IMG/VR virus record: IMGVR_UViG_3300029068_000004
Origin: a virus
Taxonomy: Duplodnaviria > Heunggongvirae > Uroviricota > Caudoviricetes
Strand: one strand, 5' to 3'
Length of the DNA stretch: 28,003 nucleotides
A program made the position numbers and the translations under genes. Below, piece by piece: positions 4,201 to 27,829 of the stretch. Under the pieces are notes generated by a model. That model was not told the origin of the DNA. It made no database searches and was given only the letters and a program-made list of their open reading frames with translations. Position 1 is the first letter of the stretch. Every line of letters starts with the position of its first letter.

Positions 4201-4663
4201 TGGTGATGTCTTTTTCCGTCACCCAGCCACCATTACGCTGGATCTGAACCAGCAGGCGGACTTCCGACGGATTCCTGTCCCCCTTTGAGGTGGTTTCCAC
4301 CAGTGCCTGCACGCCGAAGGTAAAACGCAGTCGGTCAATGTTTGCCGACGTGATGGTCCGGGTGATCGGCGTGTCGTATTTCACTTCCGTACCCAGCACC
4401 GTCTCGGAGCCGGAGGATTCAAATCCCTCCGGCGGTGTCTGCTCCTGCTCACCGGCCCGGAACACCACCGTGACACCGGAGATGTTGGTATTCCCCTCAG
4501 TGTCCAGCACCGGCGTACTGTTCAGCAGCACACTTTTTAATCCGTCCACCGGACCTTCAATCGGCCCTTCACTGATGGCGTCTATCACGCTCAGCATCTG
4601 GGATGATTTCAGGTTGTCCTTCGCTTCGCGCGGGGTATGCCCCTTACTGCTGCCTTTACCCAT
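1268..4663 (-). CDS. J: Tail tip / host specificity protein J (central tail fiber)
   Basis: 1131-aa ORF; N-terminus [20 protein letters not shown]... and most of the length match lambda J (1132 aa) from memory; position between I and lom. Confidence 0.95.
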
Positions 4664-5365: not shown

Positions 5366-5941
5366 TTGTCGGTATACCTCTCACGTTTGCTCAGTTGTTC
5401 AGGAATATGGTGCAGCAGCTCGCCGTCACCACAGTAAATGGCGGCATGATTCGGCACCGATGAACCAAAACAGCACAGCAGCACATCGCCCGGTTGTGCT
5501 GATGACAACGGCACCTGATACAGCCCTGTGGCCTCCAGATTATCCAGATAGAGATTCTGACCGTGACGCCACCAGTCATCCTCGCGATGAAAATCCGGCA
5601 TATCAATCCCCGCCAGATGGTAAGCATCCCGGAACAGCGTGTAACAGTCCGTCACCCCGTGCTCAAAGCGCCGCCCGGTGAGATACGGCACACAGCGGAA
5701 TTTATGAATCTCCCCACGGCAGACCACCGGGGTGGCTGTGGACCAGCGCCACAATCTCACCCTGCATCTCTGCCCGCAGCCAGTCCTCCGGCGACATCCG
5801 GAAATACGCCTCCGACTCACCGGAGATATTCACGCAGGGAAAATATCTTTCCCCTTCCGGCGTTCTCACCACGAAGCCGCACGACTCCGCTGGCGCACAT
5901 CGCCGGGCGTGCGCCAGAATCGCTGATTCTGTCTCTGTCAT
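5263..5941 (-). pseudogene. K: Tail tip assembly protein K (JAB/MPN + NlpC/P60) split across two reading frames, probable frameshift pseudogene
   Basis: The N-terminal part (5941-5702, 79 aa, MTETESAILAHARRCAPAESCGFVV...ALVHSHPGGLPW then stop) and the C-terminal part (frame of ORF 5263..5820, ...GEIHKFRCVP...NlpC/P60-like...) are both K-like but in different frames. The break falls inside the JAB motif HxHx7Sx2D, immediately after HSHPGGLPW. Confidence 0.7.
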
Positions 5942-18562: not shown

Positions 18563-19870
18563 TTAAATCCGAAGTGATGTGACTCTTCCGATCGGTTTGA
18601 CAATAGGGAATTGCTTAACGATGAAATAACCTCCGGCATCATTCGGGTGATCATTGCCAGATTTTTTATCAGGCTCCCCCTTCTCATCCCAGACCTGTTG
18701 CTCCAGAGATTCGGCATATAACGGGCAACGCTTCACATTAACTTTATAGCGACGCTCACCATTGGCATTGCAGAACATTGCATTCATTGAGTTAACGCGA
18801 TCTTTTACTGGCGGGTTCGAGCTGTTCACCACAACGTTAAAACCAGCCTGCTTAAGCTGGGCTATATCCGTCGTACTTGCGTTACTTGATTTTCTGGAAT
18901 CCCCGGAAGCATCTGGATAAATATAAATTTCCCTCACTTTCCGGTAATCATTCCCATCATACAGCCAGAAGCGTTCTTTAATGATGCGGATCATATCCGG
19001 CGTATCGTAGGCATTGATGATTTCAGTTACCGCACATGGAAGCCCCAAACGCAGCACATGGACGATTCCCGCCATCTTTCCAACGTTAAAATCCATCCCA
19101 ATATAAATCGGCTCCCCTGGCTGCTCCACTTCTTCGCAATTATTCAGTTTCCGGTCAAACTGATGGTAAACAGTACCACTTGTCAGGTTAGTAAACTGTC
19201 CTCGAAGATAGGCTTTAATCAGCTCTGGAGGGTATGATTCAAGAAGCGAAGGAATGTAATCTGCTGGCAGGTTCTTTTCATTATCGAAAGTAGATGCCTG
19301 CACCAGACCATACAGTGAGGCCAGCTCTGTTTTTTCACGCACGGCTTTAACAAACTGCTCGTAGACAAATTTGAATCCTTCCGGCGTGGTTGTAACGTCA
19401 ATACCGTTGCGAAGTCCATCAATCTTATAACGCATACGTGCAATTATCTTGCGCCACGCCGTTCTGGCTTTTTCCTTCGGCAAAATGTCCAGTTCATCCA
19501 CCAACGCATTACCAATTTTGAAACCGACGATCGTTTGTGGCTTCTCCATCGATCTGCAGATAGTGGTTCCCCGATACTGGCGTCCGTAATAAAAGTGAAC
19601 CTCTTTATTTCCCTCATTAATTTTTACGTTCAATCCCCAGTCAGCAGCAACTTCTTCCACTGTAGGGTAAAAAATATCGCGAATTTGGGGATACGTTGGC
19701 GCAAAATATCCCTGATTTATACCTGGATGCTCCCAAATCCCCTTGCATATGCCGCCACACCCAACCCATGTTTTGCCCGAGCCAAAACCAGCAATATAGG
19801 CTTTAAATTTATGGGGCATTGAAAGAAATCGCGCCTGAGGCACATTAAGCGTCGGAGAGATCATCTTCAT
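18563..19870 (-). CDS. Terminase large subunit
   Basis: Walker A P-loop AGFGSGKT near the N-terminus, acidic motifs, size about 435 aa; probable ATG at 19870 (the track start at 19873 is GTG). Confidence 0.9.
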   Translation of the reverse strand: MKMISPTLNVPQARFLSMPHKFKAYIAGFGSGKTWVGCGGICKGIWEHPGINQGYFAPTYPQIRDIFYPTVEEVAADWGLNVKINEGNKEVHFYYGRQYRGTTICRSMEKPQTIVGFKIGNALVDELDILPKEKARTAWRKIIARMRYKIDGLRNGIDVTTTPEGFKFVYEQFVKAVREKTELASLYGLVQASTFDNEKNLPADYIPSLLESYPPELIKAYLRGQFTNLTSGTVYHQFDRKLNNCEEVEQPGEPIYIGMDFNVGKMAGIVHVLRLGLPCAVTEIINAYDTPDMIRIIKERFWLYDGNDYRKVREIYIYPDASGDSRKSSNASTTDIAQLKQAGFNVVVNSSNPPVKDRVNSMNAMFCNANGERRYKVNVKRCPLYAESLEQQVWDEKGEPDKKSGNDHPNDAGGYFIVKQFPIVKPIGRVTSLRI

Positions 19871-20939
19871 CACTCCTTACTCTGGCATCAACCACATTAA
19901 TATTGATCGCCACAGGCTGGGGATGTTCATTATCCTCCACCGTTTCGATCTCTTTGCGCAGCTTCTGGTTTTCTATTCTGCGCCGTTCAATTTCCAGTTC
20001 CTGTAGCCGCTTATCTGCACATAATGCCCCGCCAGCAGAAAGCAAACGCAACAATTCACGCCGGGCGGCAGCCTTATCCTCCAGCAGGATCTCAACACCG
20101 TATTTTCCGAGCTTTGACCCTGCATATAATTGCCGCGCATCCCCATCAAGCAGTGTGGTATCAGCCATATAAAGCTGTCCCGTTCCCTCACCGCAGCACT
20201 TCGGGCAATCCGGATTGGGTATGGCGTTATCAACAAAGCCGAGGCCTCCATATTCCGGCTCGGATTTACCATCTCTGGAGGCCTGTGCCGCAGCCTTATC
20301 GAATTCTGCAATATCACGCCACTGGTAGAGATGATTCTCGCCCCAGCAATAACGGCAGTTAACACGGCGAAATTGTGCCAACTGATTGGGGTCGGCCTGG
20401 ACAATGGCCATCAACTGGCTCACCAGTAAATCCAGGTCTGCGGTATAGCGTTTCTGGTACTGATTGCGGAAGTAGCTGATAGCACGATAAACCCTGGCAT
20501 TTCTAAGCATACGACTGGCGTTGCTGTTAGCTGTCGCACCTTGCCCCTCATAACCGGCTAGTCGGTACGCCTCTGTCGGCTTTTTACCCTGAGCAACAAG
20601 CATCGCAAACTTAGCCTGCTGGTCAGAAATGCCGAATTCATCGGGACAGAACGAAAATTCCTCCGCGTCGCCCTCATTCAGGCCCGCATCGAATACTGGC
20701 TTTTTTTCCTGAGATTTTTCGTTCCGCTTTTGTGCAGTCTGCGCAGATTTTTTCTGCGCACTTTTTTGCGCAGTTTTGCGCATTTCTGTCTGCGCATTTT
20801 TCGGAGGTTTTTTGATGTAACGACGGGCTGTTGCGTAATTCAGTCCCCTTGCTTCACACCATGCCACCGGAGATATACCGGAGCGGGTGTATTCAGCAAT
20901 ATACTCCTGCTGCAACGCCCCCCAGTCCGGTCTGCTCAT
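19845..20939 (-). CDS. Terminase small subunit (Terminase_2-like core with N-terminal HTH and C-terminal Cys-rich region)
   Basis: Residues around ...AKFAMLVAQGKKPTEAYRLAGYEGQGATANSNASRMLRNARV... fit the small-terminase pattern from memory; N-terminal HTH-like segment; CRYCW...CPKCC cysteine cluster; directly upstream of the large terminase. Confidence 0.7.
   Translation of the reverse strand: MSRPDWGALQQEYIAEYTRSGISPVAWCEARGLNYATARRYIKKPPKNAQTEMRKTAQKSAQKKSAQTAQKRNEKSQEKKPVFDAGLNEGDAEEFSFCPDEFGISDQQAKFAMLVAQGKKPTEAYRLAGYEGQGATANSNASRMLRNARVYRAISYFRNQYQKRYTADLDLLVSQLMAIVQADPNQLAQFRRVNCRYCWGENHLYQWRDIAEFDKAAAQASRDGKSEPEYGGLGFVDNAIPNPDCPKCCGEGTGQLYMADTTLLDGDARQLYAGSKLGKYGVEILLEDKAAARRELLRLLSAGGALCADKRLQELEIERRRIENQKLRKEIETVEDNEHPQPVAININVVDARVRSDEDDLSDA
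20731..20796. repeat. Array of palindromic TGCGCA hexamers (5 perfect + 1 TGTGCA) with T/A tracts, inside the 5' part of the small terminase gene
   Basis: TGTGCA at 20731; TGCGCA at 20740, 20755, 20767, 20777 and 20791; spacing 10-15 bp. Encodes the low-complexity peptide ...KTAQKSAQKKSAQTAQK... Confidence 0.8.
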
Positions 20940-20942
20940 CAG

Positions 20943-21194
20943 TTAGTCCTGATTTTTATCCACCCTGAGTAGTTCGCGCAGAGCAAAGGCATCCCCTTTT
21001 CTGGCAAGCTTAAACAATGCCGCTCGTAACTCGGCTTCACCTTTCGCTCTGCCCTTACGGATGGCCGCATAAAAATCTGTCATTGCTTCCCGATTTTCTT
21101 TCAGTCGGTTCAGATCAACATCCAGAACGTCAGCGATTTGTTGTGCAGTCATCCGGCACGCTGCCAGAGACTCGACTTTCGAATACGGAATCAT
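20943..21194 (-). CDS. Small HTH DNA-binding protein (function unknown)
   Basis: 83-aa ORF with an HTH-like segment MTAQQIADVLDVDLNRLKEN; its stop lies 3 nt upstream of the small terminase ATG. Confidence 0.45.
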   Translation of the reverse strand: MIPYSKVESLAACRMTAQQIADVLDVDLNRLKENREAMTDFYAAIRKGRAKGEAELRAALFKLARKGDAFALRELLRVDKNQD

Positions 21195-22062
21195 TTGTCA
21201 CCCCTATTGATATGCAGGGTGTCTTCTTCCTGTATTTTTCGTGAAGGATTTTTACTGCAGCGTTGTTCCAGGTGACCTGATGGTGAATGCGTTTATGGCT
21301 GGCACCCATCAGTGAGATTTTTACGCACGACGGCGCATACATGACGGAGTAAAAACTTTTAACGTAGGTTCCGGAATCCAGATACAGCTCGGTCATTCCG
21401 CCGCTGTTTTTCTGCGTCTGTTTCTGCCCTAACTGGACAGCACCGATCGTCATAAACAATTCACCACAGCGACCGAGATTCGTGTACGTATTCACATCCT
21501 CGTTAATGCGCCCCATGAATGAGAACGGTCGATCAACCGAACAGATAAAGCTGTTCATTGCCTTGCGTTTCACCCACGAAGCATGGCCGCCATTGTCACC
21601 AAGAAAATCCCCTCCCTGCGACATAGCGATGGAAAGAGCAGGTATTGATTCGTAGTACGCCAGCATTTCAGAAAGGATCGCATCCAGTTTCCTTATCGGA
21701 AAATAGGCCTGGTCATAGTTGCGATCCACCCGAAACTGGAACTCGTGATAATCATCATCGAGCTGAATGAAGTATTTACACCCGACCAGTTTTGCCTGGT
21801 CGAAACAGGCATTACGGGCGTAAAAAATTGAGCGGCGGTCACAGAAATTATCGGCTTCGTCAAAACGACTGGCGATATCGGCTTTGGAAAACACCAGCAC
21901 CTGTTCACCAAATTCAGCCATGTACTGATGCCGTGTCTTATCTTCATCATCAACAACGATAAAAATTTTCCCGGTATAGCCAGCACGACGCAACGTCCGG
22001 TAAGTCAGAACTTTGTCCGGTCGCCCGTGAGTCAGAATAAAGGCGCAAAAATCATCACGCAT
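21130..22062 (-). CDS. Hypothetical enzyme with GT-A (family-2-like) glycosyltransferase sequence pattern
   Basis: 310-aa ORF with ATG at 22062. Sequence pattern CAFILTHGRP ... KIFIVVDDED ... YARNACFDQAKLVGCKYFIQLDDDY resembles the GT-A N-terminal strand plus ARN...G.Y...LD.DD (DXD) signature; no C-terminal transmembrane segment. Confidence 0.4.
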   Translation of the reverse strand: MRDDFCAFILTHGRPDKVLTYRTLRRAGYTGKIFIVVDDEDKTRHQYMAEFGEQVLVFSKADIASRFDEADNFCDRRSIFYARNACFDQAKLVGCKYFIQLDDDYHEFQFRVDRNYDQAYFPIRKLDAILSEMLAYYESIPALSIAMSQGGDFLGDNGGHASWVKRKAMNSFICSVDRPFSFMGRINEDVNTYTNLGRCGELFMTIGAVQLGQKQTQKNSGGMTELYLDSGTYVKSFYSVMYAPSCVKISLMGASHKRIHHQVTWNNAAVKILHEKYRKKTPCISIGVTNDSVFESRVSGSVPDDCTTNR

Positions 22063-22846
22063 ATTCCTCCTCCTCACCACCATGCATGATCTCCACCATG
22101 CGCTGCGTCATCCGGACAAATCCATTTTCAATAGCCTGCTGATAATCAATGATCACCAGCGCCGACTCCTCGAAAAAACACTGAATTTCAGCGGGGGCGT
22201 GAGCGTAATAGTCCGCAATTCTGCTGAAATTAAACACCGTGTGACGTTCTGCCGCACACAGGAGGAATTTCTCAATATCAGGCTCAAGGGACGCCGAACG
22301 TATCCGGCTGATCAGCTCCTGAGTTTTCGTATCGTCGTACAGTTCACTGATATCCGGTTTACCGCCCGACGGCTCATAAACAGGCGTATCAATTTTCGTC
22401 GTATACGGCTCCTCCTCATTTCCTGTACCGGGCAAAACATCCGTCAACAGTTCATCAATTTCTGTCGGGATGAAGCCTGTCAGGGAGACATCAAAATCAG
22501 CATTGATTAGGTCCGACAGCTCCATCCGCAACAGATCTTCATCCCAGCCAGCATTCATCGGCAGGCGATTATCTGCCAGGCGGTACGCCTTTTTCTGCTC
22601 ATCCGTCAGGCCAGACAGAACAATGACCGGAACAGAATCCATTTTGAGCATTTCAGCCGCCATAACACGACCGTGACCCGCAATAATTTCGCCCTTTTCG
22701 TCAATCAGCACCGGATTAGTCCAGCCGAATTGCTTAATACTTTCTACCAGTTGTGCCACCTGCTCAGGGCTGTGCGTCCTGGCGTTGTGCGCATACGGTG
22801 ACAATTCTTGTAATGGGCGATAGACTATCTTTAATTTCTCGCTCAT
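22055..22846 (-). CDS. ParB-like (ParB/Srx N-terminal domain) protein with a C-terminal domain of unknown function
   Basis: N-terminus ...LSPYAHNARTHSPEQVAQLVESIKQFGWTNPVLIDEKGEIIAGHGRVMAAEMLKMDSVPVIVL matches the ParB N-domain pattern including GHxR. Ends with the acidic tail GGEEEEYA, whose codons (GAGGAGGAGGAA) form the Shine-Dalgarno for the downstream gene. Confidence 0.7.
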   Translation of the reverse strand: MSEKLKIVYRPLQELSPYAHNARTHSPEQVAQLVESIKQFGWTNPVLIDEKGEIIAGHGRVMAAEMLKMDSVPVIVLSGLTDEQKKAYRLADNRLPMNAGWDEDLLRMELSDLINADFDVSLTGFIPTEIDELLTDVLPGTGNEEEPYTTKIDTPVYEPSGGKPDISELYDDTKTQELISRIRSASLEPDIEKFLLCAAERHTVFNFSRIADYYAHAPAEIQCFFEESALVIIDYQQAIENGFVRMTQRMVEIMHGGEEEEYA

Positions 22847-22983: not shown

Positions 22984-24441
22984 TTAGGAGCGCCAAAAAA
23001 AACCTGAAAACAATATAATAACAGGATAAATTTCAAGGCGACCAAGAATCATAGCTATGCACATTAAACATTTTGCAATGTCATTAAGCACTCCGAATGA
23101 CGATGCAGTAGCCCCAAAACCTAATCCCATATTATTAATACATGCAGCCACTGTTGCAAATGATGTAAGAAAATCATATCCCATACCATTTAACACCAGT
23201 ATAAAAAACACCGTGAAGAGAGTATAAAGAAAAAAGAAACTCCATACAGACCTCATTACACGATCTGTAACTATCTTCCCTCCTACATTTACACTCAACA
23301 ACGCTCTGGGATGAGAAAGCTGATTTATCTCGTGTTTGCTTTGTTTGAAAAGTATAAGAAATCGAAGTGACTTAATTCCACCACAAGTTGAACCTATACA
23401 TCCCCCAAAGAAACTTGACAACAGCAAAAACACTATCGTGTGCGTGGGCCAACTTGCATAATCCTGCGTAGCTAAACCATTATCAGTGAGCATGGAGCTG
23501 GCAAGAAAAAACGAATGAATAAAACTTCCATGCAAGTCATACATACCTATATGCCAGACCTGGAAAGAGGTAACAATGATCACCCCTAAGGCTATTAACA
23601 GAAAGAAACGAAGTTCAATATCTCTGATTAAAGGTTTTATCGTTTTCCTGCTAATAACAATATACCAAAGAGTGAAGTTGAAAGCCGATAGCAGGGAAAA
23701 AGAACCAGCCACCAGCTCAACCAAATAGTTATTAAAATATCCGATACTCTCGCTATGAGTTGAGAAACCACCAAGCGAAACTGTGGAAATCCCGTGACAA
23801 ATAGCATCAAACAAAGGCATTCCTGCAAGTCTATAACAGACAATACAAGCAATACCTAATAAAGAATAAGTTATCCACAGTGTCCGTGACGTATCGGCCA
23901 GGCGGGGAGTGAGTTTGTCATCCTTAAATGGCCCCGGCATTTCTGACTGATAAAGCTTTGCACCACCAATACCCAATAATGGCAATACAGCAACCGCCAG
24001 AACAATAACTCCTAAACCACCTATAAAATTTAACTGTGACCGATAGTACAAATATGCCCGAGGTAATGAACTAACATCATCAATTACAGTTGCTCCTGTT
24101 GTTGTTATTCCAGAAACCCCTTCAAACAGAGCATCAATGAACGTTAAATTAAGTTCTGAGTCAATCCATAAAGGGAATGCACTAATAACAGAAAACAAAA
24201 TCCAAAACATTACAATTATAATAAACCCATCACGGGTACGTAATTGAATGCCAGATTTCTTAGTTGTATACCACGCTCCGCCACCAATGCAAAAAAATAT
24301 AACGAAAGTTATAAAGAAAACAAACAGGCTTTTTTCTTTATAAAACAATGCTACAACCATTGGTGGCAACATTGAAAGACTATAGAGCCAAACCAGGAAC
24401 CCACACATATGAGTAACAACTCTTACATGAGATGTATTCAT
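22984..24441 (-). CDS. trkG: TrkH/TrkG-family potassium uptake protein (moron)
   Basis: Polytopic membrane protein; from ATG 24441 it reads MNTSHVRVVTHMCGFLVWLYSL..., as E. coli Rac-prophage TrkG (485 aa) from memory. A TTG at 24459 with an AAGGTGG Shine-Dalgarno is an alternative start. Visibly AT-rich versus neighbours. Confidence 0.9.
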   Translation of the reverse strand: MNTSHVRVVTHMCGFLVWLYSLSMLPPMVVALFYKEKSLFVFFITFVIFFCIGGGAWYTTKKSGIQLRTRDGFIIIVMFWILFSVISAFPLWIDSELNLTFIDALFEGVSGITTTGATVIDDVSSLPRAYLYYRSQLNFIGGLGVIVLAVAVLPLLGIGGAKLYQSEMPGPFKDDKLTPRLADTSRTLWITYSLLGIACIVCYRLAGMPLFDAICHGISTVSLGGFSTHSESIGYFNNYLVELVAGSFSLLSAFNFTLWYIVISRKTIKPLIRDIELRFFLLIALGVIIVTSFQVWHIGMYDLHGSFIHSFFLASSMLTDNGLATQDYASWPTHTIVFLLLSSFFGGCIGSTCGGIKSLRFLILFKQSKHEINQLSHPRALLSVNVGGKIVTDRVMRSVWSFFFLYTLFTVFFILVLNGMGYDFLTSFATVAACINNMGLGFGATASSFGVLNDIAKCLMCIAMILGRLEIYPVIILFSGFFWRS

Positions 24442-24578
24442 ATCTAAATATTCTTTCAATTATAACCACCTTGCTGCAATATTATGATTATACTGTATAA
24501 AATTTAACTCCTCTTAGATCTTACTTCACTGTTCCTTATGAAACAATCATCAAAATGAATCATATTGTAGTTAAGATT

Positions 24579-25043
24579 TTACTTTAAACACTGCTCGGTT
24601 ATGTATTGCTGAGCACCTTCAAGTTGGGCCTGCATCATTACCAGTCGTTCCCGGAGGGTGAAATAATCCCGTTCAGCGGTGTCTGCCAGTCGGGGGGAGG
24701 CTGCATTATCCACGCCGGAGGCGGTGGTGGCTTCACGCACTGACTGACAGACTGCTTTGATGTGCAACCGACGACGACCAGCGGCAACATCATCACGCAG
24801 AGCATCATTTTCAGCTTTCGCATCAGCTAACTCCTTCGTGTATTTTGCATCGAGCGCAGCAACATCACGCTGACGCATCTGCATGTCAGTAATTGCCGCG
24901 TTCGCCAGCTTCAGTTCTCTGGCATTTTTGTCGCGCTGTTCTTTGTAGGCGATGGCGTTATCACGGTAATGATTAACACCCCATGACAGGCAGACGACGA
25001 TGCAGATAACCAGAGCGGAGATAATCGCGGTTACTCTGCTCAT
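24579..25043 (-). CDS. Rz: Rz i-spanin
   Basis: 154 aa with an N-terminal transmembrane segment and coiled-coil body; lambda-Rz-like sequence; start overlaps the R stop (ATGA). Confidence 0.9.
24638..24823 (-). CDS. Rz1: Rz1 o-spanin lipoprotein, embedded in Rz in the +1 frame
   Basis: 61-aa [27 protein letters not shown]... with a lipobox (VVGC) and proline-rich segment; wholly inside Rz, as in lambda. Confidence 0.85.
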
Positions 25044-25516
25044 ACCTCAATCTCTCTGACCGTTCCGCCAGCTTCTTTGAATTTTGCAATCAGACTGTCA
25101 GCCTTATGCTCGAACTGACCATAACCAGCGCCCGGCAGTGAAGCCCATATATTGCTGCAACGGTCGATAGCCTGACGGATATCACCGCGATCAATCATCG
25201 GCAAAGCGCCACGCTCTTTAATCTGCTGCAGCGCTACAGCATCCTGACTTTCTGGAGAAAAATCTTTCAGGCCAAGTTGCTTGCGGTAGGCATCCCACCA
25301 GCGTGAAAGAAGCTGGTAACGTCCAGCGGCTGTTGATTTGAGTTTCGGATTTAGCGTGACAAGTTTGCGGGGGTGATCGGAGTAATCAGTGAACAGTTCG
25401 CCACCGACAATAACATCATAACCGTGATTTCTGGTTTTCTGCCGTCCGTTATCTGTTCCTTCTGACCATGCCACCATATCAAGGAAAGCTTTACGCTGGG
25501 AATTAAGTGTCTGCAT
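25040..25516 (-). CDS. R: Endolysin (lambda R-type lytic transglycosylase)
   Basis: 158 aa; sequence ...[33 protein letters not shown]... is near-identical to lambda R from memory. Confidence 0.95.
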
Positions 25517-25519
25517 TAA

Positions 25520-25861
25520 TTACTCCTTATGGGCACCGAACTTGTTACCGATGACCCTCATTGCCGCACCACGAATAGCATCAACACCAATCAGCCCCAC
25601 CCCACCACCAATGGCAACAGAAAGTGATTTAGGCCATCCGACATACTCAAGCGCGGATGCAAAGGTCAGCGTCAGAGCACCACAAAGCAGAATCTCAAGC
25701 GTTTTTCGTTTCCAGCCGCCGCCACCGCCAAAATAGGCAATGCGCAAACCAGCCATAATAATTGACATAACCACTGCACCCAGCGGCGTATCTCCACGCC
25801 ACCAACTTTGTAAGAGTTCCAGTAAGTCAGGCCAGGAATGAGGGGCATTGTGCATTTTCAT
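25520..25861 (-). CDS. Holin (three predicted transmembrane segments) with M-K-M dual-start motif
   Basis: Immediately upstream of the endolysin; ATG-AAA-ATG at 25861-25853 preceded by a GGAGGTG Shine-Dalgarno; three hydrophobic stretches; not lambda S in sequence. Confidence 0.65.
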   Translation of the reverse strand: MKMHNAPHSWPDLLELLQSWWRGDTPLGAVVMSIIMAGLRIAYFGGGGGWKRKTLEILLCGALTLTFASALEYVGWPKSLSVAIGGGVGLIGVDAIRGAAMRVIGNKFGAHKE

Positions 25862-25956
25862 AAGCCTCACCTCCGAGAGTTCGGATGGTGCTAAGTGTAA
25901 GATTCAGGCTCTCAGGCTTGCTAACAAGAAGTCGAGGATGTTTCCGGAGCCTAACA

Positions 25957-26974: not shown

Positions 26975-27003
26975 ATTGAAGCAGTTTATGCGTAAAAAAT
27001 CAA
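26975..27003 (-). promoter_or_regulatory. PR'-like late promoter candidate immediately downstream of Q
   Basis: Minus strand TTGATT - 17 nt - TTCAAT; the -35 overlaps the Q stop codon, the expected position of a lambdoid late promoter. Confidence 0.4.
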
Positions 27004-27542
27004 GCTATTTTTTGAGCAAATGATTCTCGCATGGGAATATATAGGGCATACTCAGCAACAGCCAACCAATTAGCAATTCGCTTTTCGCATGTGCTAAAAC
27101 ACCACTCAGGATGTGCATCATTTAGCAATTCAGCCATTTTGCGCTTAGTCATCCCCCGTCCTTCATACCGTTGCCGGAGGACACTAATCAATCCAGGATG
27201 CTCTGCCAGCACCTCACTTATGACTCTATCAATACATAACGCCTCTGCATCAGTACAATGCGCCAGCCAGGTCTTTTGCTTGCCATTGATCATCTCTCGC
27301 AAAAACGCTTCCAGCTCAGGTTTCTCTATTCCCGCTTTTTTCATCCTGCGCAGGGCTTCATTGACGGCTGTTTTCGTCAATTTTTTGGATGCCAGCAACT
27401 GGTTAAACATATTTCCCGTCTTACCGCCGCCAATATACGACCAGCGCCCCCACATGCGCAGTTTTCCCTGAATCCAGACACTTTCCAGCGTGGTGAGACG
27501 AAGGTGTTCCCCGCTTTTGCCTGTATTTGTTGGGTAAATCAT
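27000..27542 (-). CDS. Putative late antiterminator Q-like protein
   Basis: 180 aa from ATG 27542 (overlaps the upstream stop as ATGA); sits directly upstream of the PR'-like promoter/terminator and lysis genes; contains a Cys pair cluster (C...C...C..C). Assigned mainly by synteny. Confidence 0.5.
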   Translation of the reverse strand: MIYPTNTGKSGEHLRLTTLESVWIQGKLRMWGRWSYIGGGKTGNMFNQLLASKKLTKTAVNEALRRMKKAGIEKPELEAFLREMINGKQKTWLAHCTDAEALCIDRVISEVLAEHPGLISVLRQRYEGRGMTKRKMAELLNDAHPEWCFSTCEKRIANWLAVAEYALYIPMRESFAQKIA

Positions 27543-27829
27543 AAATAACCTTCCTTTCTCCAGATTTCTTGTGTGCGAAAAACACCTTCTGCATGCATCA
27601 GGCGTAATTCTTCTTTGGTGTAATCGCTGGTTTTTACCCGCCCGTCGATTAAATCGTGGCATGAGCTACAGGCAATCGCTGCCTGCATATCGTGTGGTTT
27701 TGTCGCTGTTCCGCACGTCCCCGACAGCCTGTAATGCGCCAGCACAGATGTTTCGGGATTGTGATTGCAGTAGCCAGGAATTCTGACGGTGCACATCTGC
27801 CCCCGCGCCGCTTTACGTAAATCCACCAT
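27539..27829 (-). CDS. YbcO-like (DUF1364) putative zinc-binding nuclease, nin-region protein
   Basis: 96 aa MVDLRKAARGQMCTVRIPGYCNHNPETSVLAHYRLSGTCGTATKPHDMQAAIACSSCHDLIDG... with a Cys/His-rich pattern as I recall for DLP12 YbcO-family proteins. Confidence 0.5.
   Translation of the reverse strand: MVDLRKAARGQMCTVRIPGYCNHNPETSVLAHYRLSGTCGTATKPHDMQAAIACSSCHDLIDGRVKTSDYTKEELRLMHAEGVFRTQEIWRKEGYL

Follow-up and report, generated by a model that had tools for sequence, protein, structure and literature searches.

A hexamer array within a small terminase gene of a Rac-like Escherichia coli prophage is a candidate recognition site for the terminase's own accessory helix-turn-helix domain

Introduction

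A small terminase gene in a Rac-like lambdoid prophage of Escherichia coli carries a dense array of a single hexamer within the codons of a low-complexity linker, and the question raised by this locus is what maintains these copies and which protein reads them. The prophage is represented by IMG/VR record IMGVR_UViG_3300029068_000004 (Caudoviricetes), of which the whole 28,003-bp stretch was analyzed and is referred to here as the window. The array of six copies (20731-20796, no strand assigned) lies in the gene for the small terminase TerS (19845-20939, minus strand; 364 amino acids). A first-pass annotation, made from the sequence alone, had proposed it as a pac or terminase-recognition site. 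The evidence described below, drawn from sequence, statistics, conservation, frame independence and co-variation, gives strong comparative support to the reading of the array as a terminase-recognition element and candidate pac site. More specifically, the array is probably the cognate site of an extra helix-turn-helix (HTH) domain of TerS itself, and the two together would form a portable cassette of ~250 bp that sets packaging specificity.

The hexamer array and the small terminase gene

The array consists of five perfect TGCGCA copies, starting at 20740, 20755, 20767, 20777 and 20791, and one TGTGCA copy starting at 20731, with spacings along the array of 9, 15, 12, 10 and 14 bp (plus-strand sequence: TGTGCAgtcTGCGCAgattttttcTGCGCActtttttGCGCAgttttGCGCAtttctgtcTGCGCA). 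It had initially been described as six palindromic hexamers, which is correct for the five TGCGCA copies but not for TGTGCA, a one-base variant that reads TGCACA on the coding strand and is not a palindrome. The claim that such a cluster exceeds chance is well founded: the Poisson estimate for five TGCGCA copies in 61 bp is ~1e-7, the maximum reached in 300 shuffles was two copies per 66 bp, and no hexamer of any kind forms a denser cluster anywhere in the window. Ten further TGCGCA copies occur in the rest of the window, for a total of 15 against 11.7 +/- 3.3 in shuffles; global enrichment of the window was therefore rejected, and the clustering alone is unusual. The T-runs of the array (A-runs on the coding strand) are genuine, but the helical phasing of A/T tracts that had been suggested did not survive analysis. 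In 72 homologous arrays the periodicity of AA/TT peaks at 12-13 bp, and at 10-11 bp it is the same as in shuffled sequences.

The placement of the array inside a small terminase gene is confirmed by the domain content of the open reading frame (ORF). TerS matches Pfam Terminase_2 (PF03592) at 35.3 bits against a cut-off of 26.1 (E 2.1e-8) over residues 122-316 (19992-20576, minus strand), and PHROG 51, 'terminase small subunit', at E 6.8e-77; phage records of 98% identity and E. coli 042 likewise annotate it as a terminase small subunit. The protein is composed of the extra N-terminal HTH, a disordered linker and a Terminase_2 DNA-binding/oligomerization core with a Cys-rich insertion. The conserved core starts near residue 101 (FGISDQQAKF). 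In a shorter homolog the Terminase_2 match starts directly after the linker, at profile position 1, and the canonical DNA-binding/oligomerization part is therefore placed from near residue 100 onward. When TerS was searched by sequence against solved structures, a marginal match to the Pam5 small terminase (E 0.15) was the only one returned.

The accessory HTH (residues 1-45; 20805-20939, minus strand) is conserved in 80 loci from other species. An AlphaFold2 single-sequence model places helices at residues 6-20, 24-31 and 35-41, in a block with a predicted local distance difference test (pLDDT) score of 77-90. The layout is that of a predicted HTH, in which the third helix, YATARRY (residues 35-41; 20817-20837, minus strand), would be the recognition helix and includes Arg39 (codon 20823-20825). 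Terminase_2 is the sole Pfam match in TerS; neither the gpNu1 winged-HTH family nor any other Pfam family matches residues 1-45, and the HTH of IS66 TnpA gave only a weak, sub-threshold match to the N-terminus (20.6 bits, cut-off 28). The Lys/Ala/Gln-rich linker (residues 46-100; 20640-20804, minus strand) houses the array and is predicted to be disordered, with pLDDT of 47-66 across residues 41-100. The array itself occupies codons 48-70 on the minus strand, and the encoded peptide is NAQTEMRKTAQKSAQKKSAQTAQK.

The linker DNA (20700-20830, minus strand) is read in shifted frames, and then back in frame, by many database proteins (for example KKLRKMRRQKCAKLRKK; proteins P0014, P0023-P0030, P0032 and P0059-P0066). 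These shifts are located at A-runs and may reflect either homopolymer sequencing errors or real slippage.

Conservation of the DNA motif rather than the linker peptide

Two sets of sequences bear on whether the DNA motif or the peptide is conserved. Eighty close relatives from IMG/VR were compared for array units and flanking residues, and a separate scan with the N-terminal domain, in which one genome per species was retained, yielded 80 loci from other Enterobacterales and one Gallibacterium. Array counts in the latter set were taken over nucleotides 121-330 of the genes. Among the close relatives, the arrays hold 4-7 copies with gain and loss of 9- and 15-bp units, and the flanking residues change while the hexamer remains intact, with Met, Leu and Val coded as xTG and Ser, Pro and Thr as xCT. 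The array of the window is open in all three sense frames; four of its TGCGCA copies read xxT GCG CAR (x-Ala-Gln), while the copy at 20777 lies in another frame and reads ATG CGC AAA (Met-Arg-Lys).

The 80 loci from the species scan reveal the same independence from reading frame on a larger scale. TGCGCA occurs 261 times as xxT GCG CAx, 72 times as xTG CGC Axx and 24 times as TGC GCA. The enrichment check that the first-pass annotation had called for gave a clear result, with a hexamer density of ~24 per kb in the linker and 0.37 per kb in the flanking DNA. The Ala-Gln pairs are preceded by 12 different residues, yet the codon of the preceding residue invariably ends in T. Similarly, T|GCG|CA accounts for 244 of 273 Ala-[Gln/His] pairs (89%) in the linker versus 65 of 191 (34%) elsewhere in the same genes (p 1e-36). 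The position table for these loci shows that the spacers between hexamers diverge while the hexamers stay. Spacings are irregular (7-16 bp), and the array starts just after the extra N-terminal HTH in every case. Perfect hexamer copies are retained between genes whose flanking domains are 35-60% identical. In Klebsiella phage ST16-OXA48phi5.1, for example, the TerS core is only ~35% identical while the N-terminal HTH is the same, and the array comprises six TGCGCA in 65 bp that use all three frames (T-A-Q, L-R and C-A). By these comparisons it is the DNA motif, and not the AQK linker peptide, that is conserved and under selection, as had been suspected at first pass, since the hexamer persists whatever the reading frame and also where synonymous codons could have replaced it.

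Two more TGCGCA copies, 12 bp apart, are found in ST16-OXA48phi5.1 (L085) at nucleotides 360-377 of terS, ~160 bp downstream of its main array and within the Terminase_2 DNA-binding region (VAQAIAQ). This pair may be a second, smaller site cluster, and copies of this type in the core may explain the high background of T|GCG|CA coding outside the linker.

The fate of the array in damaged genes was also considered. Four Arg-type loci have fewer than three copies, and all four have interrupted ORFs; other loci with interrupted ORFs retain full arrays. Phage Rac-SA53 (KU052037; L002, 3650-3740) has a terS that is annotated as a deletion fusion and is without the N-terminal HTH, and its array contains two perfect TGCGCA together with TTCGCA, TGCGCT and TGCCCA. 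This is consistent with array decay after loss of the binding domain, although the decay in dead genes is, overall, suggestive only.

Co-variation of the array motif with the recognition helix

A change in the array motif accompanies a change in the HTH. The 69 loci with Arg39 (..ARRY..) carry on average 5.13 TGCGCA and 0.09 TGCGAA, while the 11 loci with Lys39 (..AKRY..) carry 0.27 TGCGCA and 5.36 TGCGAA (Fisher 7e-12 for the Arg/Lys association), the Lys-type arrays being composed of TGCGAA or TTCGCA. Over residues 1-38, identity between Lys- and Arg-type domains reaches 97%. The Lys39 domain of Gallibacterium is nearer to the Arg types than to the other Lys types and keeps the Arg-type C-terminal flank (IKKP), and its TGCGAA is coded as Cys-Glu rather than Ala-Asn. 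Because this domain is closer to the Arg types, the Arg/Lys switch arose at least twice. An arginine-to-guanine contact at the changed base is plausible.

More divergent HTH types have different arrays in the same position as the TGCGCA array. The type GVSHT[TA]INNRA goes with GTTTCCAC or GTGGAAAC in 4-5 copies, the type DVSDTAIRKKAKADSW with four copies of GGTTCGCA, and the type G[VI][TS]EGAIRK[KR]A with 3-5 copies of GGTACGCA. The type KSTLID[LM]AK has CCGACC(A) in forward orientation followed by GGTCGG in reverse, and the type KSTL[SM]DMAK has CCGTCC(A) forward followed by GGACGG in reverse. An array had been predicted for this last, new HTH type, and it was found as predicted. Within helix 3 of the two KSTL types, Ile as opposed to Ser or Met would thus go with CCGACC as opposed to CCGTCC arrays. 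In the non-palindromic classes forward copies mostly precede reverse copies, a symmetry that the palindromic TGCGCA satisfies automatically. Perfect copies of the motif proper to a lineage remain numerous in every lineage amid divergence of all else, and the reader of the motif must have changed along with it. The co-variation of motif and TerS recognition helix across seven specificity classes supports the terminase-recognition element of the first-pass annotation as a strong candidate.

Three of the HTH classes (L169-L183, L305-L311 and L088-L167) share the N-terminal signature M-x-K-P-D-(W/E), and a CGCA core is common to four of the seven motifs (TGCGCA, TTCGCA, GTTCGCA and GTACGCA). The shared signature and core suggest one ancestral domain and site that later diversified. 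An alignment of all type-B HTHs was too diverse to seed a scan for loci, and a search with the P0149-type N-terminus, from a protein with an AQ-rich linker, found no locus.

Exchange of the HTH-array cassette

The distribution of neighboring sequences among the 80 loci is revealing of what accompanies the array. The 83-amino acid gene found upstream of terS in the window is present at six of these loci, a related TerS core at 53 (median identity 40%) and a related TerL at 34, and 24 loci share none of the three. The N-terminal HTH is, in these comparisons, the sole constant partner of the array. The cassette of HTH and array is joined to at least three C-terminal architectures, and the TerS of F116 is without both the N-terminal domain and the array. 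Phage pPE4 and Rac-SA53 are 90-92% identical in nucleotide sequence from FGISDQQAKF on, but their N-terminal cassette is different or deleted, so that in these E. coli phages with 90-92% identical cores the exchange junction lies at FGISDQQAKF. Starting instead from the hexamer, a sample of 121 triple-TGCGCA arrays from IMG/VR contained 70 that directly follow this HTH, and several more are cut by locus ends.

Two observations stand beside these results. The sequence of pPE4 is filed as 'Actinobacillus phage vB_Apl-pPE4' (PP818812.1, L003), and its terS/terL block is 92% identical in DNA to the E. coli prophage, which points to an odd assignment of the host or else to very recent transfer. Among the TGCGCA arrays with no link to this HTH, L186 has paired TTGCGCA repeats (4593-4626 and 5463-5496) that immediately precede the starts of two ORFs and resemble operators. 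Further arrays unrelated to the HTH are present in L204, L209, L195 and L285, and several of the others are plain coding tandem repeats.

Proposed function and alternative explanations

A mechanism can be outlined in which the array nucleates packaging. TerS would assemble into a ring through its Terminase_2 core, as judged from the SPP1/SF6 homologs, and a disordered tether of ~55 residues, rich in Lys, would attach an accessory HTH to every subunit. Several HTHs could then bind several hexamers at once, and weak contacts would sum to specific, high-avidity nucleation on phage DNA near the 5' end of terS. Flanking DNA would then be engaged by the canonical DNA-binding domains of the Terminase_2 core, which are weakly specific, and TerL, presumed to be the nuclease/ATPase recruited by TerS, would be placed for an initiating cut nearby. 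Packaging would probably proceed in the direction of transcription, toward lower window coordinates, and the mode of this prophage is probably headful. The irregular spacings of 7-16 bp and the lack of a 10-11-bp periodicity are more easily reconciled with flexible tethers than with a rigid, phased wrap. We infer physical binding, ring stoichiometry, the position of cleavage, the direction of packaging and the headful mode; the candidate pac site proposed at first pass stands as regards its location in terS and an array linked to the HTH, while headful packaging and local cleavage belong to what is inferred.

Several considerations weigh against this interpretation. Literature searches turned up no phage with this TerS for which binding, footprinting, terminus mapping or transduction had been reported, and a Foldseek search with the N-terminal HTH model returned HTH proteins as top matches but none that was significant (best E 1.4). 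TerL, searched by sequence against solved structures, gave no match. The p values given above overstate the evidence, as the 80 loci are phylogenetically non-independent, and part of the co-variation between the adjacent HTH and array is co-inheritance. Of the 121 sampled TGCGCA arrays, 51 are in other contexts. In SPP1/SF6 the pac repeats are not specificity determinants in vitro (PMC4737164). One paper, at odds with a headful mode, places the K1G-like TerL with HK97 3'-cos enzymes, and the array region predicts a stable mRNA structure. No packaging data came to light in searches on the phage records of 98% identity or on Yersinia relatives, and searches of the literature on TGCGCA with terminase, on pac in terS and on E. 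coli prophages found no description of this element.

The array may alternatively be a TerS-binding site that is not a headful pac, serving instead as a cosB-like anchor of a cos-type phage or as an operator through which TerS controls its own late operon, and all of the support for TerS binding fits these possibilities equally. In lambda-like phages, arrays of TerS sites adjoin cosN, and in N15 such an array occurs within terS (PMC4669245); the K1G-like TerL grouped with the HK97 3'-cos terminases is, moreover, 51% identical to the TerL of the window. This alternative is nevertheless unlikely, because the genes from 22846 to TerL are closely packed and leave no non-coding gap beside terS for a cos site, and because Jerseyviruses, which have the nearest studied relatives of this TerL at 43-44% identity, were found to be headful by PhageTerm, restriction and pulsed-field gel electrophoresis (PMC10783031). 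A Kagunavirus also showed no defined termini, and a distant homolog of the TerS core is encoded by F116. That phage is a generalized transducer. As for an operator, we know of no autoregulatory role for TerS. A role in RNA or in single-stranded form, in which self-complementary UGCGCA hairpins in the late mRNA would tune translation, stability or pausing, gains from a predicted fold of -31.7 kcal/mol for 20715-20815 on the mRNA strand (z -5.1 versus dinucleotide shuffles) and from median z values of ~-2.3 in 62 Arg-type and -2.1 in 10 Lys-type arrays. It is very unlikely all the same, given that all stem arms are alike, without the pairwise compensatory variety expected of selected helices, and that there is no excess structure in L136 (-0.6), L143 (-0.5), L162 (-0.7), L178 (-0.5), L180 (+0.9) or L183 (-0.7), of which L162 has six copies in a single orientation. 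Hairpins would also leave unexplained the correspondence between the motif and a single residue of the neighboring HTH.

The array could also have arisen as a by-product of tandem duplication of an AQK-linker codon block, in which case the peptide alone would matter or there would be no selection at all. Tandem Repeats Finder reports 10-, 12- and 15-bp units at the array, copy number shifts by whole units among close relatives, and the linker is predicted to be disordered. Duplication alone is highly improbable as an explanation, since the hexamer is kept while the residues vary (A-Q, L/M/V-R and C-A, with 12 preceding residues), perfect copies persist between genes with flanking domains of just 35-60% identity, and spacers diverge while hexamers do not; it is the frame independence together with the fixation of synonymous positions that excludes such a by-product. 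Finally, another protein might be the reader, such as a regulator of the host or phage, or else a methyltransferase or restriction system specific for TGCGCA, a sequence that known type II enzymes recognize; a methyltransferase or regulator had been the fallback of the first-pass annotation. The genes directly upstream encode a TET-associated-type glycosyltransferase and a ParB-like protein, and 51 of the 121 sampled TGCGCA arrays have no link to the HTH. We regard this as the most improbable of the possibilities, because the window contains no methyltransferase that could be seen, the upstream genes are missing from most array loci, outside the array the frequency of TGCGCA in the window shows neither depletion nor enrichment, and the motif changes in step with the TerS HTH and with no other gene.

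Recognition of the array by the accessory HTH of TerS has consequences if true. It would give a sequence rule that predicts packaging specificity and pseudo-pac sites, and hence transduction hot spots in Enterobacterales, and it would explain the low-complexity linker peptide, whose codons would be dictated by the DNA site. Phages would change their packaging identity by swapping a ~250-bp cassette between terminase cores, and the same cassette would be a compact handle for engineering transducing particles and reprogramming the choice of DNA by the capsid. We consider it somewhat better than an even chance that an HTH on a tether, with an array of its own 6-8-bp sites in the tether codons and a helix-3 code, swapped among unrelated terminase cores, represents a widespread class of pac recognition. 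The recognition of pac by small terminases is an acknowledged open problem, and this TerS family makes it directly testable; it is a tractable case with an obvious site, a small separate domain and natural specificity variants set apart by a single residue and a single base.

Genomic context

The window shares 98% identity with Escherichia phage vB_EcoS-666R9, and 300 bp of it match E. coli 042 at 100%; the prophage occurs in 883 of 5,426 complete E. coli genomes. All of the genes named here are on the minus strand. In order of decreasing coordinates they are a Q antiterminator (27000-27662), lysis genes (24579-25870), trkG (22984-24459), a ParB_N protein (22055-22846), a TET-associated-type glycosyltransferase (21130-22083; Pfam TAGT E 1.5e-34, PHROG 842), the 83-amino acid ORF (20943-21194), TerS, TerL (18563-19873; Pfam Terminase_6N E 3.7e-33 and Terminase_6C E 3.4e-10) and the portal (17154-18560).

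The trkG gene, a potassium uptake gene known from the K-12 Rac prophage, is cargo between the lysis and packaging genes and is also found in the 98%-identical induced phage records. The glycosyltransferase gene overlaps the ParB_N-domain gene, and PHROG 842 is annotated as 'HMC glucosyltransferase'. These two genes may constitute a DNA-modification module; no DNA methyltransferase or TET/JBP gene was seen in the window. The 83-amino acid ORF ends 3 bp before terS and matches positions 145-218 of the 319 in PHROG 309, 'terminase small subunit' (E 8e-23), with no Pfam or NCBIfam family match. Its product may be an accessory protein that binds DNA, or the ORF may be what is left of a second type of TerS.

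Comparison with known packaging systems

The pac site of P1 consists of hexamer repeats, TGATCA/G, inside pacA, and resembles the array in being a cluster of repeated hexamers within the gene of the recognition subunit. The P1 hexamers contain GATC and are Dam-controlled, whereas no GATC occurs within 20731-20796 and the proteins are unrelated to PacA and PacB; the likeness to P1 that had been pointed out at first pass is thus only formal.

Closer in principle is the cosB of lambda-like phages (R3/R2/R1, bound by the winged HTH of gpNu1), which likewise has several short TerS sites beside or inside the 5' end of terS. TerS recognition helices and repeated sites co-vary in the cosB of lambda, 21 and N15, and phages that differ in this helix also differ in their sites, which defines packaging specificity (PMC4669245). 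In contrast to cosB, the present system has an extra HTH before a Terminase_2 core rather than a Nu1-type winged HTH, its 4-10 sites of 6-8 bp lie within DNA that encodes a disordered linker, and no cosN or IHF site was identified.

The pac of SPP1/SF6 (G1P; pacL/pacC/pacR box repeats) involves the same Pfam core family, a region that overlaps the start of terS, direct repeats, and a modeled ring of HTHs that contacts many sites (PMC4737164). The SF6 repeats are not binding determinants and recognition has been ascribed to bent DNA, while in the present case co-variation links a strict hexamer to a separate N-terminal HTH, and A-tracts show no 10-11-bp phasing. Sites for pac in or at terS are documented for P22 (PMC9611059) and SPP1 (PMC4737164), and in P22/Sf6 the site lies inside terS and is co-inherited with the protein (PMC9611059). 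The P22 pac differs in being a single asymmetric 22-bp sequence, with neither a tandem array nor an accessory HTH. In prophage Gally of E. coli LF82 a sequenced pac peak lies inside terS (PMC9928086); Gally was considered as direct experimental support and rejected, as its TerS is an unrelated 140-amino acid protein without a tandem array or an accessory HTH. A review describes TerS DNA binding as 'unclear and controversial', with TerS of P22, Sf6, SPP1 and SF6 binding pac weakly or non-specifically in vitro (PMC9611059).

Thus, that a recognition helix and repeated sites set specificity was already known from the cosB of lambda, 21 and N15, as was the occurrence of pac in or at terS in P22, Sf6 and SPP1. 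What is new in the present locus and its relatives is an accessory HTH before the Terminase_2 core, a site array in the codons of the linker, and a natural series of specificity variants.

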